From a phage: a DNA stretch of 64,000 nucleotides. The position numbers were made by a program, and so were the translations under genes. Positions 1,119 to 63,018 of this stretch are shown in pieces (position 1 is the stretch's first letter; each line of letters begins with the position of its first letter). The stretch lies in the sequence record PZ386951.1, one strand, 5' to 3'. The notes beneath the pieces were generated by a model that worked only from the letters and a program-made list of their open reading frames with translations, was not told the origin of the DNA and searched no databases.

Positions 1119-1173
1119 GATGTTTAATTGCGGTACAGGTATATAATATCATATCCTGTACCAAAGTAAACAA

Positions 1174-1523: not shown

Positions 1524-1564
1524 GTGTAAAATAATACTATCACAAAGGAGCTATACTGTAAACA
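1524..1564 (-). promoter_or_regulatory. early promoter
   Basis: GTTTACA -35 (plus 1558-1563) and TAGTATTAT -10 on minus strand. Confidence 0.55.
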
Positions 1565-4550: not shown

Positions 4551-4584
4551 AGTTATAATATCACAACTCTACCGTAAAGTAAAC
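4551..4584 (-). promoter_or_regulatory. early promoter
   Basis: GTTTAC -35, TATTATAA -10. Confidence 0.55.
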
Positions 4585-15884: not shown

Positions 15885-15911
15885 TTTATTCTCCTCAGTA
15901 GTTGATAGAGT

Positions 15912-15943
15912 AATAGTATCACACTACTACCCTGTTGTAAACT
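15912..15943 (-). promoter_or_regulatory. early promoter
   Basis: GTTTACA -35; conserved start-region motif CAACTAC. Confidence 0.55.
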
Positions 15944-17733: not shown

Positions 17734-18387
17734 TTAATACTTGCAAGATTTCACAGTTTCAATAAAAACTTTTTTAGCTTCCTGTGAATCGATATTTAAA
17801 ATTTTTCTATAAGCCTTTAACTTTATAGAATAATTATTCCAGACTAAATTATCAGTCTGTTCATCATGTTTATCAATTATATTTAAAAACGAATCAAGCA
17901 AGATAAACGTCTCAAACGAAATTATATTCGATTGAAGTAGTTTAAAAATATAACTTGATTGAACTTTTGGATTATACTCAAAGATTTCTTTAAAAGCAGA
18001 AACTTCAACTTTTTTACTAAAATAATAAATGTTGCGAATATCTTCTTCAAACTTAAATTTAATTTGCTTTAAGCGTCCGATATATTCACGATAAAACACA
18101 AGTGCATCAGCGTCAGAGATGTCACCAATCCAAGCATCTTGGTTAGCAACCAAATTGCTTATAAAGATTAAAGCAAGTTCCTTTAATTTATATTTTTCTG
18201 ATAACTTCTGGAAAAAATACTTATCCCTTCGCTTTTGATAAGCGGCATCAGACACCCGCATGCACCAATTATACTTAATAACATCATACTTTCCATTCAT
18301 ATGTTGTTTTATCATTAAGTATAATTTATAAACTGATTTACCATCAATGTATCTTTCACCACCAGCAGGCATGCGGAGTTTAATCAT
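17734..18387 (-). CDS. 59: helicase loader gp59 (217 aa)
   Basis: 217 aa and position between 32 and 33 as in T4. Confidence 0.8.
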   Translation of the reverse strand: MIKLRMPAGGERYIDGKSVYKLYLMIKQHMNGKYDVIKYNWCMRVSDAAYQKRRDKYFFQKLSEKYKLKELALIFISNLVANQDAWIGDISDADALVFYREYIGRLKQIKFKFEEDIRNIYYFSKKVEVSAFKEIFEYNPKVQSSYIFKLLQSNIISFETFILLDSFLNIIDKHDEQTDNLVWNNYSIKLKAYRKILNIDSQEAKKVFIETVKSCKY

Positions 18388-25727: not shown

Positions 25728-28700
25728 ATGGCTACTTTAAAACAAATACAATTTAAAAGAAGCAAAACCGCAGGTGCACGTCCTGCTGCTTCAGTATTAG
25801 CCGAAGGTGAATTGGCTATAAACTTAAAAGATAGAACAATTTTTACTAAAGATGATTCAGGAAATATCATTGATCTAGGTATTGCTAAAGGCGGCCAGGT
25901 TGATGGTGATGTAACTATCAACGGTAAATTAACATTAAATGGCGCGTATGTTCAGACGCTGGCTGGTATTAATACCACGGGTGGTATTAATTCTGGAGCC
26001 GCTATAAGTGCAACAACTTATTATGCTCGGTCTGGTTCTTTTTATGCTCGTGCTCCAGATGCCAATGCGAATACACATGTTTGGTTTGAAAATAACAATG
26101 GTATAGAACGTGGTGTGATTTGGGCTGTTCCGAACACTTCAGACCTAGGCTCGGTACGTATTCGAGCAAAAACCGCAGGTGGTGTTTTTGCCGGCGAGTA
26201 CAGTTTCCGCTCTGATGGCCGATTTGATGTTCCTGTAGCAGTTAAAATCGGCGGAGCAGCGATGCTAACCAAAGATGGCAACATTACCTCTGGTTCTATG
26301 TTTGGCGGTAACCTTAACAACTATTTGACTTCTATTAAAAATGACATTGTTGCTGGTGATAATAAGAAAGTAAGTAAAACCGGTGACACGATGTCCGGTA
26401 ACTTGACTATTAACGCTAACTTAAAAGTCGAAAACTCTAATGGAACGTTTGTTGATTTAGGTTCAGAGAACTCTGATAAGTATAGCAGATTAACTCTTGC
26501 TCGTAAAATTGGCGATGGCGCTGGTGTAGCAATGCTTAAAGTTACTCCTGAAGGAAACGTGCAATTTGGTTATCAACCTACAGTTGCTACTCCATCTCCT
26601 ACCAAGTATATTCTAATTAAATCTAATGGTCTTGAAGTAGAAGGGGATTTAGTTTTTAAGCAAACTTATCGTGGTACTGAAGAAGCAATTGATATTACTG
26701 ATCAGACTATTGACCTTAATAGTCTGATCATTAGACACTCAGATTTAGGCACTCGTAAGCTGTATAAATGCAGATCATCTGGCGGTGGTTCTAATATATT
26801 GAACAAACCTACATCTGACGGCAACTTTACTCTTGAAGTTCTGTCTTTACGCAAGGTTTCTGATACCGATTGGTCATGTAAACAGACCTTTACTACAAAG
26901 AACAACAATGTCGTAGGCGTATATGTTCGCTACGGGCAAGGTGGCTCATGGTCTGCATGGCAAGAAGTTGTATCTGGTGTTCAACCAATTAATTTAGGTG
27001 GTACTGGAGCAACTTCTGTAGCTGCTGCCCGTAATAACCTTGGTATTGGTGCAGGCCAAACTGTAACATTCGGTAATTTAGTTACCACCGATTTAACCGT
27101 AAATGGAAATGCTAGATTAGTCGGAAGACTGAACTTTGGTTCTAATTCTCAGTCGGCTGGTGTATTACGAGCCAACGAAGGTGGGGCTGTTGTTTTAAGT
27201 TCTGCAAGTGGTGCAAACATCCACATCAGAGCGGACGGCGATACTTCTACCGGTGAAACTCGCTTTGAGCCAAATGGCAACGTTGTAGTCGGTGGTGCTA
27301 TTACAGCATCTCAGCGTATTACAGTTAATGCTGCCACCGATGCTATTGTTGTTAACGCTCCAACTCAAGCATCATCCAACTATATTCAGGGTCGTAAAGC
27401 TGGTGTCGCTAAATGGTATGTCGGCATTGGCGATGATGGTGATGCAGTACGTCTACATAACAATGTATATTACCATGGTATTGGATTGAGCGCTGATACT
27501 GTCGATATTACCAAGCCTCTTAAAATAGGAAATGTTAAACTAGGAACTGACGGTAATATCACCGGTGGTTCTGGCAATTTTTCTAACTTGAACACAACAT
27601 TAAACCGCAAAGTTAATGTTGGCGTATGGTCAGGTGTTGATAAAGTAGTAGGATGGTACTGGTACAAATTCGCTACTGTAACAATGCCACAATCTACATC
27701 TACCGCGCGTTTCAAAATTATCGGCGGGAATGGTTATAATGCTAATTCTCCTGAACAAGCATCTGTAAGTGAAATTGTTCTTAGAACTGGTAATAATAAT
27801 CCTAAATCTATTAATGCGGTGCTGTGGTCTAGCACTAGTACCAGCCCGTCAAACATTGCTACAGTGAATACATCTGGCGATAATTATGATGTATATGTAT
27901 ACATGGGCTCTTTTGCCCAATCTTTATTAGTTGAATATGATGCTACAGTGAATATTAGCGATATTTCGGTAATCGGTCTTAATGGTGCATCTCAATCACC
28001 GGTAGAAGAATTACCTGCAGACCATGTGCTTGGACACGTGTATAAGATGTATTCCGATGCTCAGATACCTTATCCTGTTGGCGCTCCTATTCCATGGCCG
28101 AGAGATTCAATTCCAGATGGATTTGCTTTAATGGAAGGCCAGACCTTTGATAAGTCTGCATATCCAAAGCTAGCTATTGCGTATCCTAGTGGTGTTATTC
28201 CTGATATGCGAGGCCAGACTATTAAGGGTAAACCGAGCGGTCGCGCAGTGTTGAGTGCTGAAGCTGATGGTATTAAGTCCCATACCCATATTGCCTCAGC
28301 ATCCACTACTGCTTTGTCTGGTACTACAAGCGCTACTGATTTAGGGACTAAAACTGTTAGTACAACAGATCTAGGCCGTAAACATACCAATCTTGCTGGT
28401 ATGCATACTCATACAGTATCCGGTACAACGAGTACTGACGGTAGGCACGCACACACTGCTTCACTTGGTAACAACGCTAACGTTCAGTCCGGTAGATTTG
28501 CAGCATCCAATTCCGGTCAGACAGCAACGACATGGACAAACGAGGATGGTCTACACTCACACACGTGGTCAGGTACTACGTCAGTAGGTCCAGAACATAG
28601 TCACTATACTGATATCGGTACACATAACCATACAGTGGCTATAGGTTCACATACTCACACGTTTTCTATTGCTGCTCATGACCATACGATTACTGTAAAT

Positions 28701-28766
28701 AGTACAGGTAATACAGAAAATACAGTTAAAAACATTGCTTTTAACTATATCGTTCGTTTAGCGTAA
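25728..28766 (+). CDS. 37: long tail fibre distal subunit gp37 (1012 aa), T4-type
   Basis: C-terminal His-x-His repeats ([30 protein letters not shown]) typical of T4 gp37. Confidence 0.9.
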
Positions 28767-32751: not shown

Positions 32752-32789
32752 TTTCTAATCTCCGTAATTCTGTATCAGTAGTTGATAGT

Positions 32790-35905: not shown

Positions 35906-35929
35906 TTTCTGTTCCTCCGTAGTTGATAG

Positions 35930-35964
35930 GGTAATAGTACCACGGAAGAACAGTCTTGTAAACA
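35930..35964 (-). promoter_or_regulatory. early promoter
   Basis: GTTTACA -35, TGG-TACTATTAC -10. Confidence 0.55.
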
Positions 35965-40719: not shown

Positions 40720-40751
40720 AATTATACCACATCCTTGTGGTAAAGTAAACT
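40720..40751 (-). promoter_or_regulatory. early promoter upstream of rIIA.1/rIIA
   Basis: GTTTAC -35, TGG-TATAAT -10; overlaps gene 39 3' end. Confidence 0.55.
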
Positions 40752-42570
40752 ACTGGCTCATCCATTCTTTACGAAGGTCAGCATTATCTCCCATGAGCAT
40801 TTCAAAAAGCTCTTTCCAGTTCTCAGGAAGTTTAACAACATCATATACTGGATTTTGAATCATTTCACGATATTCAGATTTTTCCAAAGAGCCAAGTCCT
40901 TTAATATAACGGATGCTATGTTTAGGTAGAGCATCTTTGGCACTCTCATATTCAGCGACTGTATAAAACCATTCTTGTTTTTTACCGACCTGAGCGATGA
41001 TTACAGGAGTTTTGACAAAGCGAATTCGTCCTTGCTCAAACAATTCTGGCCAATTACTAAAAAATCCGAGCAGAGAAGGATAAATGCTTCCTAGACCATC
41101 ATAGTCAGCATCAGTCATAATAGCAATATTGCGATAATTCAAGTTTTCAGCTTTTTCACCAAGAACTAGACCAGTGATTGCGCAAATATCAAACAGTTCT
41201 TTGTTTTTAAGCATATCAGCATATGACATACCCCAGCTATTAAGAACTTTACCGCGTAATGGATAACCACCATGAAGTTCTTTATCGCGAACATCAATAA
41301 GATATCCGATAGCAGAATCACCCTCAGTCAAGAAAAGAGTAGTATCAGCATCTTTACCACAAAGATTCGCTTTAATATGTTTATGAACCTTAGCTTTAGA
41401 AGCCTTTTTAGCTGCTTTAGTTTCTGCCGCTTTTTCTGCCGCCAATTTACGAGCTAGTGCAGCTTCAATAATCGGCATCAAAATCGCTTCATTATTCAAA
41501 ATAGCACGTGAAATCTTTTTAGCATCAAGTTGAATATGACTACGGATTTCACCAAATGGAGAAGTCAAACGCTCTTTAGTTTGAGAATCAAATCGCATGT
41601 TTTTCATATCACGAACAAACATAACGATAGTCAAACATTCTTTAACGCGTGCTTTAGTTACATCAATTTTGAACTTACGTTTGATTTGTGGAATAAGGTC
41701 TTCACAAATATCATCCATAACACAATCAATGTGATGGCCACCATTCTTAGTATGAATGTTATTCACATAAGTTAATTGACGAAAACCATCCGGTGAACGA
41801 CCAACCGCAATAGAACAATTTTCTTGCTCTTGAACAATAGCATGTTCATCATACTGTCGTGCATATTTCTTAAAATTGCCCTGAACCTTTTTACCATTAA
41901 AGGTAAATTGAATATCAGGATAAACAACAGCAAGTGTCTGGAGACGATCTAATGTAATGTCAAGATAAACTTGGGACAGCTCATTAGTTTCAAATGTCAT
42001 AAAATCAGGAATGAAAGTAACACGGGTTCCTTTCCATTTTCCAGGAATATCTTCCCATGATTTATTTTCCATGCCATTTGAACAACGAACTACAATATTA
42101 TTTTGACCGTCGCCAGTTTCACCAACAAACATCACAGAAAAAATATTTGTCAAACTAGAACCAACACCATTCATACCGCCAGTGACGCGTTCTTTATCAT
42201 CACCAAAGTTACCACCTGCTTTTGGAATAGTCCATGCAGCAACAGGACCAGGAATTTCTTCACCGGTAGGTGTTTTAACCATCGCCTGTGGAATACCGCG
42301 ACCGTTATCTTCAACTGTTACTTGATTGTTTTTAATAGTAACATTAATTTTATTTGCGAATTTAAACTTAGTACGAATACCTTCATCGACTGAGTTATCG
42401 ATAATTTCATCAATAAGCTTAACAAGACCAGGTACATACTGAACACTTTCCCATTTACCAAACAGAAAGCGCTCATGCATTTCATTAGCTGAAGAGCCAA
42501 TGTACATGCCGCTACGCTTTTTGATATGTTCAATATCGCTCAGAATTTTAATTTCATTCTTAATCATCAC
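40750..42570 (-). CDS. 39: DNA topoisomerase II large subunit gp39 (GyrB-like ATPase + Toprim, contiguous 606 aa)
   Basis: GHKL ATPase motifs (GGMNGVGSS) and Toprim (LTEGDSA) in one ORF. Confidence 0.9.
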   Translation of the reverse strand: MMIKNEIKILSDIEHIKKRSGMYIGSSANEMHERFLFGKWESVQYVPGLVKLIDEIIDNSVDEGIRTKFKFANKINVTIKNNQVTVEDNGRGIPQAMVKTPTGEEIPGPVAAWTIPKAGGNFGDDKERVTGGMNGVGSSLTNIFSVMFVGETGDGQNNIVVRCSNGMENKSWEDIPGKWKGTRVTFIPDFMTFETNELSQVYLDITLDRLQTLAVVYPDIQFTFNGKKVQGNFKKYARQYDEHAIVQEQENCSIAVGRSPDGFRQLTYVNNIHTKNGGHHIDCVMDDICEDLIPQIKRKFKIDVTKARVKECLTIVMFVRDMKNMRFDSQTKERLTSPFGEIRSHIQLDAKKISRAILNNEAILMPIIEAALARKLAAEKAAETKAAKKASKAKVHKHIKANLCGKDADTTLFLTEGDSAIGYLIDVRDKELHGGYPLRGKVLNSWGMSYADMLKNKELFDICAITGLVLGEKAENLNYRNIAIMTDADYDGLGSIYPSLLGFFSNWPELFEQGRIRFVKTPVIIAQVGKKQEWFYTVAEYESAKDALPKHSIRYIKGLGSLEKSEYREMIQNPVYDVVKLPENWKELFEMLMGDNADLRKEWMSQ

Positions 42571-42636: not shown

Positions 42637-42906
42637 TTATTTAAAACGAATAGTCGAATCCTTGAAGAATAGTCCAGAACATACTGTTCCTTCTACTTTC
42701 TGCCCAGTAGGTCCAATAGCACGAAATCCAGTATGCTGGAAATCATTTTCAGAGCAACCGAACCAATTATATCCAGTGATTTCAATATTAGTAAAACCAC
42801 TTGAAGACAAAACTTTGGTTGCATTATCAGCATCAGTACATCCTATTAAAGACACTGCTAATACTAATGCTGCAATAGAACGATTAATATATTTCATAAT
42901 TTTCAC
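42637..42906 (-). CDS. putative lipoprotein (89 aa)
   Basis: signal peptide with lipobox LIGC. Confidence 0.5.
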   Translation of the reverse strand: MKIMKYINRSIAALVLAVSLIGCTDADNATKVLSSSGFTNIEITGYNWFGCSENDFQHTGFRAIGPTGQKVEGTVCSGLFFKDSTIRFK

Positions 42907-43280
42907 TTAAATTTAATGGCTTGAAGAAGACTAATAACTCTCAAGCGGCTTCTTTCATCTTTAACTGTAAAGGAAAGAGGGTCACCAGATTTCATAGTGA
43001 TAGTGCATTCAAAATCAAAATCTTCAGGAACTTCTTCGAAGAAGTCAAATTCTTCATCATAAATTAGAACATTACTTTGAAAACTGTGAAGAATTTTTCC
43101 ATCATTTCCAGATGCTGTACTAATCATTGTAACATTATGGCCTTTCATATCTTCAACGATAAATTCGCTTGTAGATATTACAGCATTAATAGAACCATTC
43201 CTATAAATAGCAGACATTAGATATTTCTTTTCTTCACCTTCGCGAATACGGTATTTCTTACCAATTTTAAACATAATCAC
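42903..43280 (-). CDS. hypothetical protein (125 aa; track start is GTG, probable ATG start at 43274)
   Basis: ORF upstream of gene 39. Confidence 0.5.
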   Translation of the reverse strand: MIMFKIGKKYRIREGEEKKYLMSAIYRNGSINAVISTSEFIVEDMKGHNVTMISTASGNDGKILHSFQSNVLIYDEEFDFFEEVPEDFDFECTITMKSGDPLSFTVKDERSRLRVISLLQAIKFK

Positions 43281-43453
43281 CCTTTAAGTAAATCGTAAAA
43301 ACCACCATTCACATGCTTAGGAGCAGAAACTAACCGAATAGCAATCCGATGACAATCAGGACATACATCAGTATCCCTTTCAGAAATTTTCTTGATTTTT
43401 TCGTATTCTTTTGCACAGTCTTTGGATTGACATTTATAATCATAAAGAGGCAT
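43277..43453 (-). CDS. small zinc-ribbon protein (58 aa), below cutoff
   Basis: translation MPLYDYKCQSKDCAKEYEK...CPDCHR has CxxxxC-x17-CxxC; TGA overlaps next start. Confidence 0.5.
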   Translation of the reverse strand: MPLYDYKCQSKDCAKEYEKIKKISERDTDVCPDCHRIAIRLVSAPKHVNGGFYDLLKG

Positions 43454-43455
43454 AA

Positions 43456-43875
43456 TTATTCCTTAAAGTGAGCTTTCAACATTTGATACAAGGACCATGC
43501 TTGTTCATTATTTTCAATAGTAACTTTCATTACCGGGAATTCTGTGAAATCTTCTATTTGTTCTTGCTCTTCCTGCTCTTGTTCTTCAGCAGCCTGATAT
43601 GGATTTTCAACTTCATCAAAGAACCCAGCTTCGTTAGTAGAGAGCCAGATAAAGTTTTCGTCAAGGATATCACCACCGGCACAACGTTTGAGCACACCTA
43701 TGGATGTCATAATTTTAGTAGGACGCCCAAGATAATCAGCATCTAAAATTTTAAAAGGCTCCATACCTAAACGTCGTGCATAGATTCCGTTATCAGTATG
43801 GTCTTTAATAAAATTTTCTTGAGCTTGTTTATTTTTAAATTGATACCATTTATTAACTTCAAATTTAATAGCCAT
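43456..43875 (-). CDS. hypothetical acidic protein (139 aa)
   Basis: ORF; [10 protein letters not shown] acidic tract. Confidence 0.5.
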
Positions 43876-44093
43876 TAATAAATTTCCTTCCAGTAAGTTG
43901 TGCCATCTTCAGTAATTTCACGAAATACACCGTAAATTGGTTGTTTATCACCGACTTTCTCATACACATAAACCGAAGTCAAGTGAGTAAACTTGCTAGT
44001 ATGTTCCTTTTGAACTACTACCAAATCTGGATCGAATAATACATCTTCAAATTCATCATTAGTGCAATTCTGAACAATTTTACGTTTCATCAT
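43875..44093 (-). CDS. hypothetical protein (72 aa)
   Basis: ORF. Confidence 0.5.
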
Positions 44094-44189
44094 AATTTCC
44101 TCATTAATTGAACATTGGAGAGATGCGTTTCAGAAGAGTATCAGCACCTTTAACGAATTATCCATTTTATTCTTCAAGTTGTTTTCTGT

Positions 44190-44245
44190 ATCAGTAGTTG
44201 ATATTGATATAGTACCATAATCAACTACTGATGTATATAGTTTTA
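44190..44245 (-). promoter_or_regulatory. early promoter with flanking 13-bp inverted repeat
   Basis: TGG-TACTATAT -10; ATCAGTAGTTGAT / ATCAACTACTGAT arms at 44190-44202 and 44220-44232. Confidence 0.45.
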
Positions 44246-44263
44246 TGAAAAAAATTTTAAACT

Positions 44264-44755
44264 TTATGCATAGCGAGCTTTGCTGTAGTGTTTAATCCAA
44301 CTTTCAGGAATGACTTTGTATGTTCCTAAAAATACCACATTGTACAGCTTAACACCATCTTCTACCCATTGATCAGTAATGTATGCACACATAGCGCGAG
44401 TACGCTGAGGAAGTGGTTGTCCACCTTCGGTAAATTCAAACTCATAAGGAGCAACGAACTTGATAGCTTGACCGAGTTTCCACTTAAAGTCTACACCTAC
44501 GTGCGAAGTATCAATTGTTTCAATTCCTTTAGCAGGAACATCTTTCAAAAACGCAGATTCAAGAAATTTCGCACGAACATAGCCAAACTGAGGTTTAGAC
44601 TTTCCATCTTTAGGAATGATACGAACTTTTACTTCAGAATCTTCATCTTTAACACCATGCTTAAGCTGAATGCTTACAATTTCGACCAATTTTCCTGCTG
44701 CTTTAGAACGGGATTTATCAGATACACGAGCAATTTCACCAATATTAATAATCAT
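44264..44755 (-). CDS. hypothetical protein (163 aa), paralogue of 44829-45263
   Basis: shared C-terminal motif TDQW(V/I)EDGV.L.NVV..G.Y.V.P. Confidence 0.55.
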   Translation of the reverse strand: MIINIGEIARVSDKSRSKAAGKLVEIVSIQLKHGVKDEDSEVKVRIIPKDGKSKPQFGYVRAKFLESAFLKDVPAKGIETIDTSHVGVDFKWKLGQAIKFVAPYEFEFTEGGQPLPQRTRAMCAYITDQWVEDGVKLYNVVFLGTYKVIPESWIKHYSKARYA

Positions 44756-44828
44756 AGTTATCTCTCACTTGTTAAAAAGATTTTATACTCCACAGGACCA
44801 TTATACTCTGGTCCCAAGAGTTTGTAAA

Positions 44829-45263
44829 CTAGCTTACACGAACATTAATCACTGCGCTGCGAGGAACTACTGAGTACTCTCCAGCATGAACTACATTAAG
44901 AAGTTCAACGCCATCTTCGATCCACTGATCAGTTACCCAACCGCCAATCGGATTCGCGAATGGACGACGAATGTAAACTGCCTTACACAACAAATCAGTC
45001 GGGTCTTCAGGTTTTTCAATTTCTGTCAATAGATTAAAATCTTCTTCATAGATGATGAATGATGATACCCTTCCATAATAGTTTCTAATTTCCATGTACA
45101 CTGTACCAATGAGAATTCCGCTATTAACACTAATAACAGTAAAAGGATATCCGCCAGTTGTACCAAGAAGTTCCCAAAATTTGCTATCAGTCGTATTCGA
45201 CATTGTCTGGAAATCAATTTCAGATGGTTTTTTCATTTGATACGCAGTATTAATTTTAATCAT
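44829..45263 (-). CDS. hypothetical protein (144 aa), paralogue of 44264-44755
   Basis: shared C-terminal motif with neighbour. Confidence 0.55.
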   Translation of the reverse strand: MIKINTAYQMKKPSEIDFQTMSNTTDSKFWELLGTTGGYPFTVISVNSGILIGTVYMEIRNYYGRVSSFIIYEEDFNLLTEIEKPEDPTDLLCKAVYIRRPFANPIGGWVTDQWIEDGVELLNVVHAGEYSVVPRSAVINVRVS

Positions 45264-45273
45264 AATTTTCTCT

Positions 45274-45813
45274 TTAGTTTAAGGTAATAAAGCCTTTTAG
45301 TTCGGCATAGGATTTACGGAACATTACTTGATGCCCGCCAACGATAACTTGGTCATCTGGTACTTCGTATATAGCAAGATAAAATCCTTTCGAAGCTAAT
45401 TCTTCACGCTCTTCTCGTGTGAACCATCTCATCATATCATATTCGCTAGCGAAAGCAAAATGATAAAGAGCTATAAACCATCCTGGAATATGATATTCTA
45501 CTCCAACATAATCTTTCTTGAACTTAGTATTAATTACTATATTAGCGTTTTTAACTAATAGTTTATCTTCGTGTGGTAAAGGAATTCTTTTATTATTATC
45601 GCTATGATGCATAAAATTAGGTCTGTCATAACCTACGTGTAATAGCCACTCTTCGCTCCATGAATCTATTATACTCCTGTACGGCGTTATTTGAACACAA
45701 AGATTTCGACGTATTGTTATAGCATCTTCATAATCAAGAATACTAAACGATGATTCAACACGATAAATTTTCATTTTATTATCCTCAGTAGCTATGGTGT
45801 TATAATACCACAA
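45274..45813 (-). CDS. hypothetical protein (179 aa)
   Basis: ORF with early promoter at 45800-45832. Confidence 0.55.
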   Translation of the reverse strand: MWYYNTIATEDNKMKIYRVESSFSILDYEDAITIRRNLCVQITPYRSIIDSWSEEWLLHVGYDRPNFMHHSDNNKRIPLPHEDKLLVKNANIVINTKFKKDYVGVEYHIPGWFIALYHFAFASEYDMMRWFTREEREELASKGFYLAIYEVPDDQVIVGGHQVMFRKSYAELKGFITLN

Positions 45814-45837: not shown

Positions 45838-46521
45838 TTATCGTTTTGTTGGAAGAGATAGAGGATCGCAATCTTCCTCTGACGGAGCATCTTCAAGACC
45901 CATAGCGTATCGCAAAGCATACTTCATCATCAGGATGTCTTTCGCACAGTCATGAATAGAATCATGCGCAACGAATCCATCTAAAGTTCCTTTTGGAAGA
46001 GGACACGTGGTCATATCACGAACAAGCAGAAGTGCTTCAATTCTGGTACGAATATCACGCTGATTCCAGAATTTACATGGTTCTAACTTAAATGTGTCAA
46101 GTTCATTCTCAGAAACACCATTAAGACGTTGAATATCACGAATGAGATCGACTAAAATTGGAAAATCAAACGACATTCCACGGCACCAGCCTTGAGATTT
46201 CCAAGGATCGATATTATGCGCATTGATGTAATCATTAAATTTTGCAATACCGTCAATAGTGCTTACATCTTCATCTGATGGTGCAATATTTTTTCGAGCT
46301 TCAGGTGATTGATTTTTCCACCATTCGATAGTGCTTTTAGTAAAAAGACGATGTCCTTTTTGGCTTTTTAAATCAAATTTGATTTTAATGCCACGTGAAA
46401 CTAATTCATCAAATGTTTCAACTACTTCTGGATTAGGATCAAAGGCAATAACAGCCAAATCAATAACAGCTGCTTTTTCACCGCTTCCCATTGTTTCAAA
46501 ATCTATAATAAAATCAAACAT
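45838..46521 (-). CDS. dexA: exonuclease A (DnaQ-like 3'-5' exonuclease, 227 aa)
   Basis: 227 aa; N-terminal DFET exonuclease motif (FIIDFETMG). Confidence 0.85.
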   Translation of the reverse strand: MFDFIIDFETMGSGEKAAVIDLAVIAFDPNPEVVETFDELVSRGIKIKFDLKSQKGHRLFTKSTIEWWKNQSPEARKNIAPSDEDVSTIDGIAKFNDYINAHNIDPWKSQGWCRGMSFDFPILVDLIRDIQRLNGVSENELDTFKLEPCKFWNQRDIRTRIEALLLVRDMTTCPLPKGTLDGFVAHDSIHDCAKDILMMKYALRYAMGLEDAPSEEDCDPLSLPTKR

Positions 46522-55217: not shown

Positions 55218-55251
55218 TTTATAATACCATAACAAGCTGAGAAAGTAAACA
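55218..55251 (-). promoter_or_regulatory. early promoter upstream of the PD-(D/E)XK-like ORF/dam
   Basis: GTTTAC -35, TGG-TATTATAA -10. Confidence 0.55.
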
Positions 55252-62962: not shown

Positions 62963-62983
62963 ATCTGTATCAGTAGTTGATAG

Positions 62984-63018
62984 TTGTATAATACCACAGA
63001 GGAACAGTCTTGTAAACA
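62984..63018 (-). promoter_or_regulatory. early promoter
   Basis: GTTTACA -35, TGG-TATTATAC -10. Confidence 0.6.

Follow-up and report, generated by a model that had tools for sequence, protein, structure and literature searches.

An early promoter nested in a -10-centred inverted repeat at the motB-cef junction of a T-even phage

The motB-cef junction and its early promoter

We analyzed a stretch of 64,000 nucleotides of phage DNA (sequence record PZ386951.1; hereafter, the window) and focused on a perfect inverted repeat at positions 44190-44232. The window belongs to a T-even phage, and the region around the repeat shares 94% identity with T4 and 98-99% with T6-like phages. A comparison with the T4 record places the early genes of the region on the minus strand, in the order dexA (45838-46521), motB.2, motB.1, motB, cef, and goF. 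The repeat sits in the 170-bp gap between the motB stop codon and cef, where its two arms enclose the -10 element of a predicted early promoter. In T4, cef, goF, and motB are early genes at both the RNA and the protein level (PMC9697503, supplement), and the middle promoters listed for T4 include none between 5349 and 10058. The genes flanking the repeat are the following:

44264-44755, minus strand: motB, the upstream gene, 163 amino acids (aa); stop codon TAA at 44266-44264; 94% DNA identity to T4, in which motB is annotated at the matching position
44130-44165, minus strand: vestigial 11-codon open reading frame (ORF), MDNSLKVLILF followed by a stop (ATGGATAATTCG...TGA); from the alignment with T2, PYps14T, and UViG_2938479101 and from the T2 and RB10 annotation
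43875-44093, minus strand: cef, 72 aa, the first intact downstream gene and candidate client of the promoter; from the ORF list and the T4 comparison
43456-43875, minus strand: goF, after cef

Read on the minus strand, the motB-cef gap (gtttaaaatttttttcataaaacTATATACAtcagtagttgattaTGgTACTATatcaatATCAACTACTGATacag) has the architecture of a T4-type sigma-70 early promoter: an A/T tract, TATACA, 17 bp, TGgTACTAT, and the conserved start region. Its parts are:

44238-44262, minus strand: UP-like A/T-rich tract gtttaaaatttttttcataaaacta, 88% A+T, the homologue of segment aaaaattttttcacaaaac in sibling early promoters
44232-44237, minus strand: -35 hexamer TATACA, 5/6 matches to TTTACA (T-even consensus TTTACA/T); the hexamer's last base doubles as the first of the 5' arm
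44220-44232, minus (sense) strand: 5' arm ATCAGTAGTTGAT, promoter positions -30 to -18, within the 17-bp spacer between -35 and -10
44203-44219, minus strand: loop TATGGTACTATATCAAT, positions -17 to -1, with TG at 44217-44216 and the hexamer TACTAT at 44214-44209
44190-44202, minus strand: 3' arm ATCAACTACTGAT, the start region conserved among T-even early promoters, probably positions +1 to +13

The UP-like tract, the TGn motif, the -10, and the start region all align with sibling promoters, and the predicted start is the A at 44202 (T4 coordinate ~6588), seven bases past the -10. With a weight matrix built from 13 of the window's other early promoters, the cef promoter scored 43.4 bits; it ranks 10 of about 128,000 positions on both strands, well separated from background, and outscores four of the promoters used for training. 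At orthologous sites in other genera, the -35 is TATACA, TGTACA, or TTTACT, the first two being seen in Dhakavirus-like and Mosigvirus-like phages. Judged by these sequence features, the palindrome brackets the -10 of a genuine T4-type early promoter firing toward cef (44093-43875).

This assignment differs from that of an earlier note on the same DNA, which had apparently read the plus strand. The note had recognized a -10 within the 17-bp spacer, and one is indeed present, on the minus strand (TGgTACTAT, hexamer 44214-44209). It had also proposed that the promoter drives 44264-44755; this ORF is motB, encoded on the minus strand and ending 31 nt upstream of the palindrome. Since the palindrome lies past the motB stop codon, it cannot drive that gene. 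A plus-strand promoter for 44264-44755 was likewise rejected: the ORF is on the opposite strand, and the weak plus-strand mimic scores 7.5 bits, against 43.4 on the minus strand, and has no -35. The note was right that other early promoters carry a single copy of the repeat, although its upstream and downstream labels were reversed. On the minus strand, the 13-mer ATCAACTACTGAT recurs as an exact copy at 32774-32786 and 62969-62981 and with one mismatch at 15894-15906, and near copies are found at 35915 and 36422. All of these sit just past a -10, and none has a complementary 13-mer upstream. Because the sibling copies are all on the minus strand, the copy homologous to them is 44190-44202, and the extra inverted copy is 44220-44232; as a minus-strand spacer arm, ATCAGTAGTTGAT is unique to the cef promoter within the window. 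The plus-strand reading thus apparently reversed the roles of the arms and gave the wrong gene.

Conservation of the palindrome and turnover of the genes beside it

On the plus strand, ATCAGTAGTTGAT at 44190-44202 and ATCAACTACTGAT at 44220-44232 are perfect reverse complements of 13 bp with 17 bp between them, as the earlier note had described. A repeat finder lengthens the arms to 20 nt at 85% complementarity, and an inner 5-bp helix, UGGUA/UAUCA, is predicted within the loop (44203-44219). The symmetry centre falls at about -8.5, within the -10 hexamer of the cef promoter. Perfect inverted repeats of at least 13 bp with a loop of 3-40 nt occur three times in the window, compared with 0.18 +/- 0.50 (maximum 2) in 60 dinucleotide shuffles of the window. 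Folded as RNA, the hairpin at 44190-44232 reaches -23.5 kcal/mol (z = -5.0), and as DNA -11.5 kcal/mol (z = -5.6); in each case, 0/200 shuffles equalled it. The shuffles and the folding z-scores mark the palindrome as non-random, and it is a real, strongly selected feature.

The two remaining perfect 13-bp short-loop repeats of the window are both intragenic. One, at 26699-26730 (TGATCAGACTATT/AATAGTCTGATCA, 6-nt loop), lies inside the plus-strand ORF 25728-28766 (1012 aa), and the other, at 18267-18326 (AATTATACTTAAT/ATTAAGTATAATT, 34-nt loop), inside the minus-strand ORF 17734-18387.

The entire element is identical in T4, T2, RB10, pSs-1, PYps14T, ASO78A, and IMG/VR Tequatrovirus contigs. 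The earlier note had named absence of the upstream arm from close relatives as part of what would refute its reading; T4, T2, RB10, pSs-1, and PYps14T all keep both arms, and the refutation fails on this point. Of 499 matching phage records, 440 carry a 55-nt core with 100% identity, and the other 59 have 1-2 differences; in the four variants with 1-nt differences (98% identical) that were inspected, the changes fall in the loop or flank and none in the arms. Both arms were unaltered in all 15 Tequatrovirus copies that were inspected individually, these four included.

Beyond Tequatrovirus, we located the junction through Cef and MotB homologues in Mosigvirus-like phages, Dhakavirus, Kanagawavirus, Karamvirus, Moonvirus, Gelderlandvirus, Roskildevirus, Gaprivervirus, and unclassified Klebsiella phages, and additionally in 42 IMG/VR loci. 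Nearly all surveyed junctions contain GTTTAC-N17-TACTAT with the -10 at the hairpin apex and with differing arm sequences. Overall, at least 10 other Tevenvirinae genera carry a -10-centred hairpin at the motB-cef junction whose arm sequences compensate one another, for example (5' arm / 3' arm):

Kanagawavirus (locus L014): TGGTGTAGGAcCATG / TATGtTCCTACACCA
Klebsiella phage kv_tblp5 (L015): GGTAGGAGCATG / TATGTTCCTACC
Karamvirus (L016/L017): AGGGCTATG / TATAGCCCT
Gelderlandvirus (L021): AGGGTTATG / TATAACCCT
Mosigvirus-like phage (L013): GGTCTATG / TATAGACC
Dhakavirus VR5 (L010): GATAGGGTA / TACCCTATC
IMG/VR contig (L076): TGGTAGAAGACTGTG / TATGGTCTTCTACCA

RNAalifold found three covarying pairs in an alignment of nine sequences. 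In a set of 15 sequences, pre-selected for a single pairing register, 89.7% of cells are paired and 6 of the 11 pairs show double changes; none of 500 shuffles reached the observed values, and registers slid by 1-3 columns pair at 38-50%. The hairpin also outlasts the promoter: the motB-cef gap of Gaprivervirus (P896, L022; also L007) retains the hairpin GATAGGGTA-loop-GCCCTATC (GATAGGGTAatttGCCCTATC), whose arms match those of Dhakavirus, and no recognizable -35/-10 was found in that gap. In Erwinia phage Cronus, where a canonical terminator stands separately upstream, a small -10-centred hairpin is still present. A different register is seen before a distant cef homologue (L082; IMGVR_UViG_2706795719_000001, ~300-360), where a terminator, AAAGAGG-loop-CCTCTTT followed by a T-rich tract (TATTTTGTATT), holds the -35 GTTTAC in its loop, with TATTAT after it, so that terminator and promoter overlap.

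These comparisons bear on the simplest alternative, a functionless chance complementarity between a variable spacer and the conserved start region. Only one arm would have to evolve, the other being fixed for promoter reasons, and the genome is A/T-rich. Nevertheless, with 0.18 such repeats expected per window, with arms that do not vary among the 15 Tequatrovirus copies and a core that is unchanged in 440/499 records, and with equivalent hairpins of other sequence at the same site in at least 10 genera, we disfavour chance and consider it very improbable.

The genes beside this invariant cassette are far from constant, and three arrangements occur directly downstream of it among Tequatroviruses. 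T2, RB10, and the IMG/VR contig UViG_2938479101 have an intact 89-aa ORF between the promoter and cef. The window and T4 retain only the 11-codon vestige, after a deletion of ~210 bp internal to this ORF, and in PYps14T the ORF is wholly lost and the Shine-Dalgarno region of the cassette is fused directly to cef. Between RB10 and the window, the adjacent motB 3' end is 60-82% identical, rising to 100% at the cassette edge. Moreover, the half-cassette from the -10 to ATGGATAAT (-10 to ATG) recurs before an unrelated ORF (MDNYGELFNFF...) in the e.8-rnaC region of T2L (L009; 86% identity over 106 nt) and in Mosigvirus vB_VIPECOMC06 (L090). There, the -35 is the consensus GTTTACA and the spacer is non-complementary to the start region. 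This recurrence resembles an exchange of half-cassettes between loci.

Such a pattern could arise if the cassette, possibly through its stem-loop, served chiefly as a site at which small neighbouring genes are swapped, deleted, or inserted through homologous or targeted recombination, with the palindrome either maintained for that purpose or hitch-hiking. Both the recurring half-cassettes and the RB10 identity jump are in line with this idea, and for the promoter-early stem-loop cassettes (PeSLs) of RB49 and phi1, mini-circles and crossover points in the stem-loop have been reported (PMC2839356). The recombination site that the earlier note had proposed therefore fits the PeSL literature and the three downstream arrangements, but the deletion endpoints that can be read lie outside the palindrome: those of the window and T4 are internal to the ORF, and that of PYps14T lies between two Shine-Dalgarno regions. 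In addition, homologous exchange requires a conserved cassette and not an intramolecular inverted repeat, and the compensatory change of the arms across genera would be left unexplained. We thus regard a recombination role as a possible minority reading of low probability.

Gene 39 (topoisomerase large subunit; 40750-42570, minus strand) is a single 606-aa ORF in the window; in the T4 record, the gene 39 annotation covers an N-terminal portion that an insertion has separated. Another variable patch of small early genes lies at 42637-43280 (minus strand), between gene 39 and a 39.2-like zinc-ribbon ORF (43277-43453). Two ORFs, of 89 and 125 aa, occupy this patch in the window, and T4 has just the short 39.1 there.

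Hairpins at sibling promoters and the predicted role of the cef hairpin

We then considered the 15-16 early promoters of the 64-kb window. Over positions -30 to +26, 6 of 16 have a hairpin with z < -3, as compared to 1.7% of random 62-mers (Mann-Whitney p = 0.003). The sibling hairpins are listed below by the position of the -10 hexamer, with 5' arm / 3' arm:

4555-4560, minus strand: GGTAGAGTT / AACTCTACC
1143-1148, minus strand: GGTACAGG / CCTGTACC
1534-1539, minus strand: CTCCTTTG / CAAAGGAG
35934-35939, minus strand: CTGTTCTTCCGT / ACGGAGGAACAG
45802-45807, minus strand: CCTCGGTTAGTT.. / ..AGCTACTGAGG
55221-55226 and 15913-15918, minus strand: weaker hairpins
44800-44805, minus strand: motB promoter, a weaker hairpin, GGGACCA / TGGTCCT around TATAAT (44800-44828)

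Each sibling hairpin has its own arm sequence, and the 5' arm always lies in the spacer between -35 and -10, upstream of the start region. In about 10 sibling and orthologous promoters, the hairpin centre falls between about -12 and -3. Several strong early promoters lack any hairpin, for example, those with a -10 at 62988, 52881, or 32793.

The diversity of these arms argues against an operator, which the earlier note had suggested and which would consist of two 13-bp half-sites bound by a dimeric phage or host regulator. A perfect palindrome over a promoter, with half-site centres 30 bp (about three helical turns) apart, would suit such a regulator, and the neighbouring motB encodes a DNA-binding protein (PMC6070864). 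However, the 5'-arm sequence is absent from every other promoter of the window, the arms of siblings, such as GGTAGAGTT, GGTACAGG, and CTGTTCTTCCGT, are unrelated to it, and the 3' arm is conserved even at promoters without a partner arm. Across genera, it is the pairing and not the sequence that is kept, and G.U pairs are tolerated. An operator is thus unsupported and, in our estimation, highly unlikely.

Building on the promoter identity, the non-randomness of the hairpin, its compensatory conservation, and its recurrence at siblings, each of which is established at the sequence level, we propose that the cef early promoter is nested in a hairpin formed only by motB read-through RNA, where it would act as an intercistronic attenuator and/or as a barrier protecting an RNA end. 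We hold this to be the best account, with confidence somewhat above even. Transcripts serving cef and goF would begin at about 44202 from the sigma-70 early promoter. The same 43 bp would encode the hairpin: its 5' arm lies within the 17-bp spacer, and the first 13 nt transcribed from the promoter itself would form the 3' arm. Since this transcript does not contain the 5' arm, it cannot fold the hairpin. RNA arriving from the upstream motB.2/motB.1/motB promoters, by comparison, would carry both arms and could fold an 18-bp interrupted stem. We infer that the folded read-through RNA serves as an intercistronic insulator that attenuates read-through, and/or that the hairpin protects the 3' end of the motB message and keeps decay from reaching the cef message. 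In a genome with scarcely any intergenic space, a hairpin wrapped around the -10 would be a compact solution.

Several signatures favour a structure in RNA, on the strand of the early transcript. Outside the promoter consensus, the stems contain 22 G.U pairs versus 8 A.C mismatches under symmetric scoring (binomial p = 0.016), a count we relied upon because automatic hairpin extraction caught some non-target hairpins. Sense-strand hairpins are also more stable than antisense ones (window promoters, p = 0.0015 on raw energies). Together with this G.U bias, the 17-nt central spacer and the promoter-less hairpin of Gaprivervirus favour action as RNA.

Other observations weigh against this proposal. 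The G.U and A.C counts come from related, non-independent sequences, and with composition-matched z-scores the strand difference among window promoters is no more than suggestive (sense mean -2.19 versus antisense -1.66, p = 0.065). The exact 13-bp version shows no covariation, the Tequatrovirus arms being invariant: a loop-anchored IMG/VR scan within Tequatrovirus returned five orthologous copies with identical arms, plus unrelated promoters. The covariation across genera was measured on the set pre-selected for one register. Full-text literature searches found no experiments that map where transcription starts or terminates at this site in T4. The Cronus hairpin, standing beside a terminator of its own, hints at a role beyond termination. 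Finally, the hairpin is not a canonical intrinsic terminator, with its A/U-rich stem and a tail, ACAGAAAACAAC, that has no U in its first 12 nt. Apart from these points, an Rfam search of 43800-44900 returned just a chance match to mir-217 (22 bits, against a gathering score of 70).

The lack of a U run also decides against the hairpin being a canonical Rho-independent terminator of the motB transcript. That assignment has been made in the record of phage ASO78A, which labels the same 51 nt 'rho-independent terminator; WebGeSTer', and it draws support from the stability of a hairpin placed 31 nt past a stop codon and from the true terminator that overlaps the promoter in the distant L082. Yet no U tract follows the stem, either here or in orthologues, only 4 of the 13 stem pairs are G-C, the loop is 17 nt long (alternatively, an internal loop topped by an apical loop of 3 nt), and a consensus terminator scan makes no call at the hairpin. 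We therefore rejected a canonical terminator, for the missing U tract, and consider this disfavoured reading quite unlikely.

The same palindrome could instead act in DNA. As a cruciform, or as a single-strand hairpin arising during melting, in supercoiled DNA, it would modulate open-complex formation around the -10, with extrusion either switching the promoter off or displaying the -10 in the loop to sigma. The repeat is perfect and centred inside the -10, the DNA fold has a z-score of -5.6, and the centre stays between about -12 and -3 in some 10 sibling and orthologous promoters. Cronus keeps a -10-centred hairpin despite its separate terminator, and the shut-off of T4 early promoters is incompletely understood (PMC3014915). 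Against this stand the several strong early promoters that are hairpin-free (62988, 52881, 32793), the Gaprivervirus hairpin, which has no promoter to regulate, and the orthologous G.U pairs, which are A.C mismatches on the other strand (22 versus 8). Long central spacers disfavour cruciform extrusion, and here the central spacer is 17 nt and its inner helix needs a G.T pair, which is unfavourable for extrusion. For the cruciform of the earlier note, then, the perfect repeat centred on the -10 holds, while the spacer, the excess of G.U over A.C, and the lineage with a hairpin and no promoter tell against it. We see DNA-level action as a possible minority reading, with a low likelihood.

A synthetic Escherichia coli promoter described by Horwitz and Loeb in 1988 reportedly carried an inverted repeat across its -10 and was controlled by a cruciform, with a short central spacer and extrusion said to have been shown experimentally. 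The motB-cef element resembles it in having an inverted repeat centred on the -10. It differs in that the synthetic system was engineered and had a short spacer, and the RNA-level signatures found here argue for another mode of action.

Relation to known promoter stem-loops

PeSLs were defined in RB49 and phi1 as intergenic cassettes that combine strong early promoters with stem-loops (Arbiol et al. 2010, PMC2839356). The stem-loops lie mostly in the -35/-10 interval or over the -10, one RB49 stem-loop lowered the expression of a downstream lacZ to the same extent as rrnB T1, and gene gain and loss were attributed to inter-PeSL recombination (PMC2839356). The same study described T-even analogues on T4 early promoters, with weaker, more A/T-rich stems, flanking highly variable small genes, including the IP locus (PMC2839356). 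Comeau et al. 2014 (PMC4122927) then extended PeSLs to PST/T4 and nt-1/KVP40, and for PST/T4 they describe short stems of the form AGNA...TCNT, located 'just upstream' of the promoter.

The motB-cef element carries the sequence-level features of this class, and it is a conserved example of a described kind and not a new type of element. Its cassette runs from the upstream stop codon (44264-44266) through the promoter, the hairpin over the -10, and a Shine-Dalgarno-like sequence to an ATG at 44165. Many copies exist per genome (15-16 early promoters, 6 of them with hairpins of z < -3 and several with weaker ones), and adjacent small ORFs are gained, lost, or replaced among close relatives. There are also differences. 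RB49 stems pair a G-run with a C-run at a near-perfect sigma-70 promoter, whereas the A/U-rich stem here is perfect over 13 bp and uses the start region itself. The PST/T4 stems are described as lying just upstream of the promoter (PMC4122927), and the stem here is centred on the -10. Terminator activity was measured by reporter for one RB49 stem-loop alone, and the hairpin here, known from sequence, has no U tract. The T-even elements of the IP locus (Repoila et al. 1994, as cited in PMC2839356) are PeSL analogues like this element but occupy a different locus.

A second known arrangement is found at T4 e, soc, 49, and I-TevI, where a promoter lies in the 5' strand of a hairpin, so that long transcripts fold and short ones do not (PMC3014915). 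The cef promoter shares the location inside a hairpin and, with the 5' arm at -30 to -18 and the start as predicted, a shorter transcript that would lack the 5' strand. However, those genes use late or middle promoters, and their hairpins sequester the ribosome-binding site. The cef 3' arm ends at 44190, at least 14 nt before the nearest Shine-Dalgarno-like sequence and ~85 nt before the cef Shine-Dalgarno (~44101-44104); because of this distance, no masking of translation is expected at the cef promoter. Intrinsic terminators, for their part, share with the element a stable hairpin soon after a stop codon; the element differs from them in its missing U tract, its A/U-rich stem, and its long loop, as discussed above. 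The Hinton 2010 review makes no mention of inverted repeats at early promoters.

Deposited records label the same palindrome differently: 'rho-independent terminator (WebGeSTer)' in ASO78A (L011, 482-532) and 'attL' in T2 AP018813 (L012, 383-402). Neither label suits the sequence features of the palindrome, which calls for caution with such annotations; our analysis also corrects the mis-assigned direction of the promoter.

The situation at several siblings is closer to that of e and soc. At four of them (-10 at 35934, 45802, 1534, and 55221), the 3' arm overlaps the Shine-Dalgarno, and there, read-through RNA would mask the ribosome-binding site and promoter-proximal RNA would not. One might speculate, with little confidence, that -10-centred hairpins are a general, selected device of Tevenvirinae early promoters that marks RNA by its origin, and no incidental overlap with terminators. 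If so, promoter-started transcripts would be open and read-through RNA folded, with the Shine-Dalgarno masked at 4 of the 7-9 hairpin-bearing promoters of the window. The logic of genes e and soc would then extend to early genes, each being expressed mainly from its own promoter. Still more speculatively, these dyads might act at the DNA level and contribute to the unexplained abrupt shut-off of early promoters.

The motB-cef site thus provides a textbook-quality example of a PeSL cassette in the T-even group. That its hairpin is kept by compensatory change in at least 10 genera, outlasts the loss of the promoter, and has the excess of G.U that an RNA structure on the early-transcript strand would show, is a modest comparative addition to what was described for this class. 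The site also offers a concrete handle on the role that PeSL stem-loops may play in T4, be it attenuation, protection of mRNA ends, or translational masking, in a phage where genetics and transcript mapping are easy.

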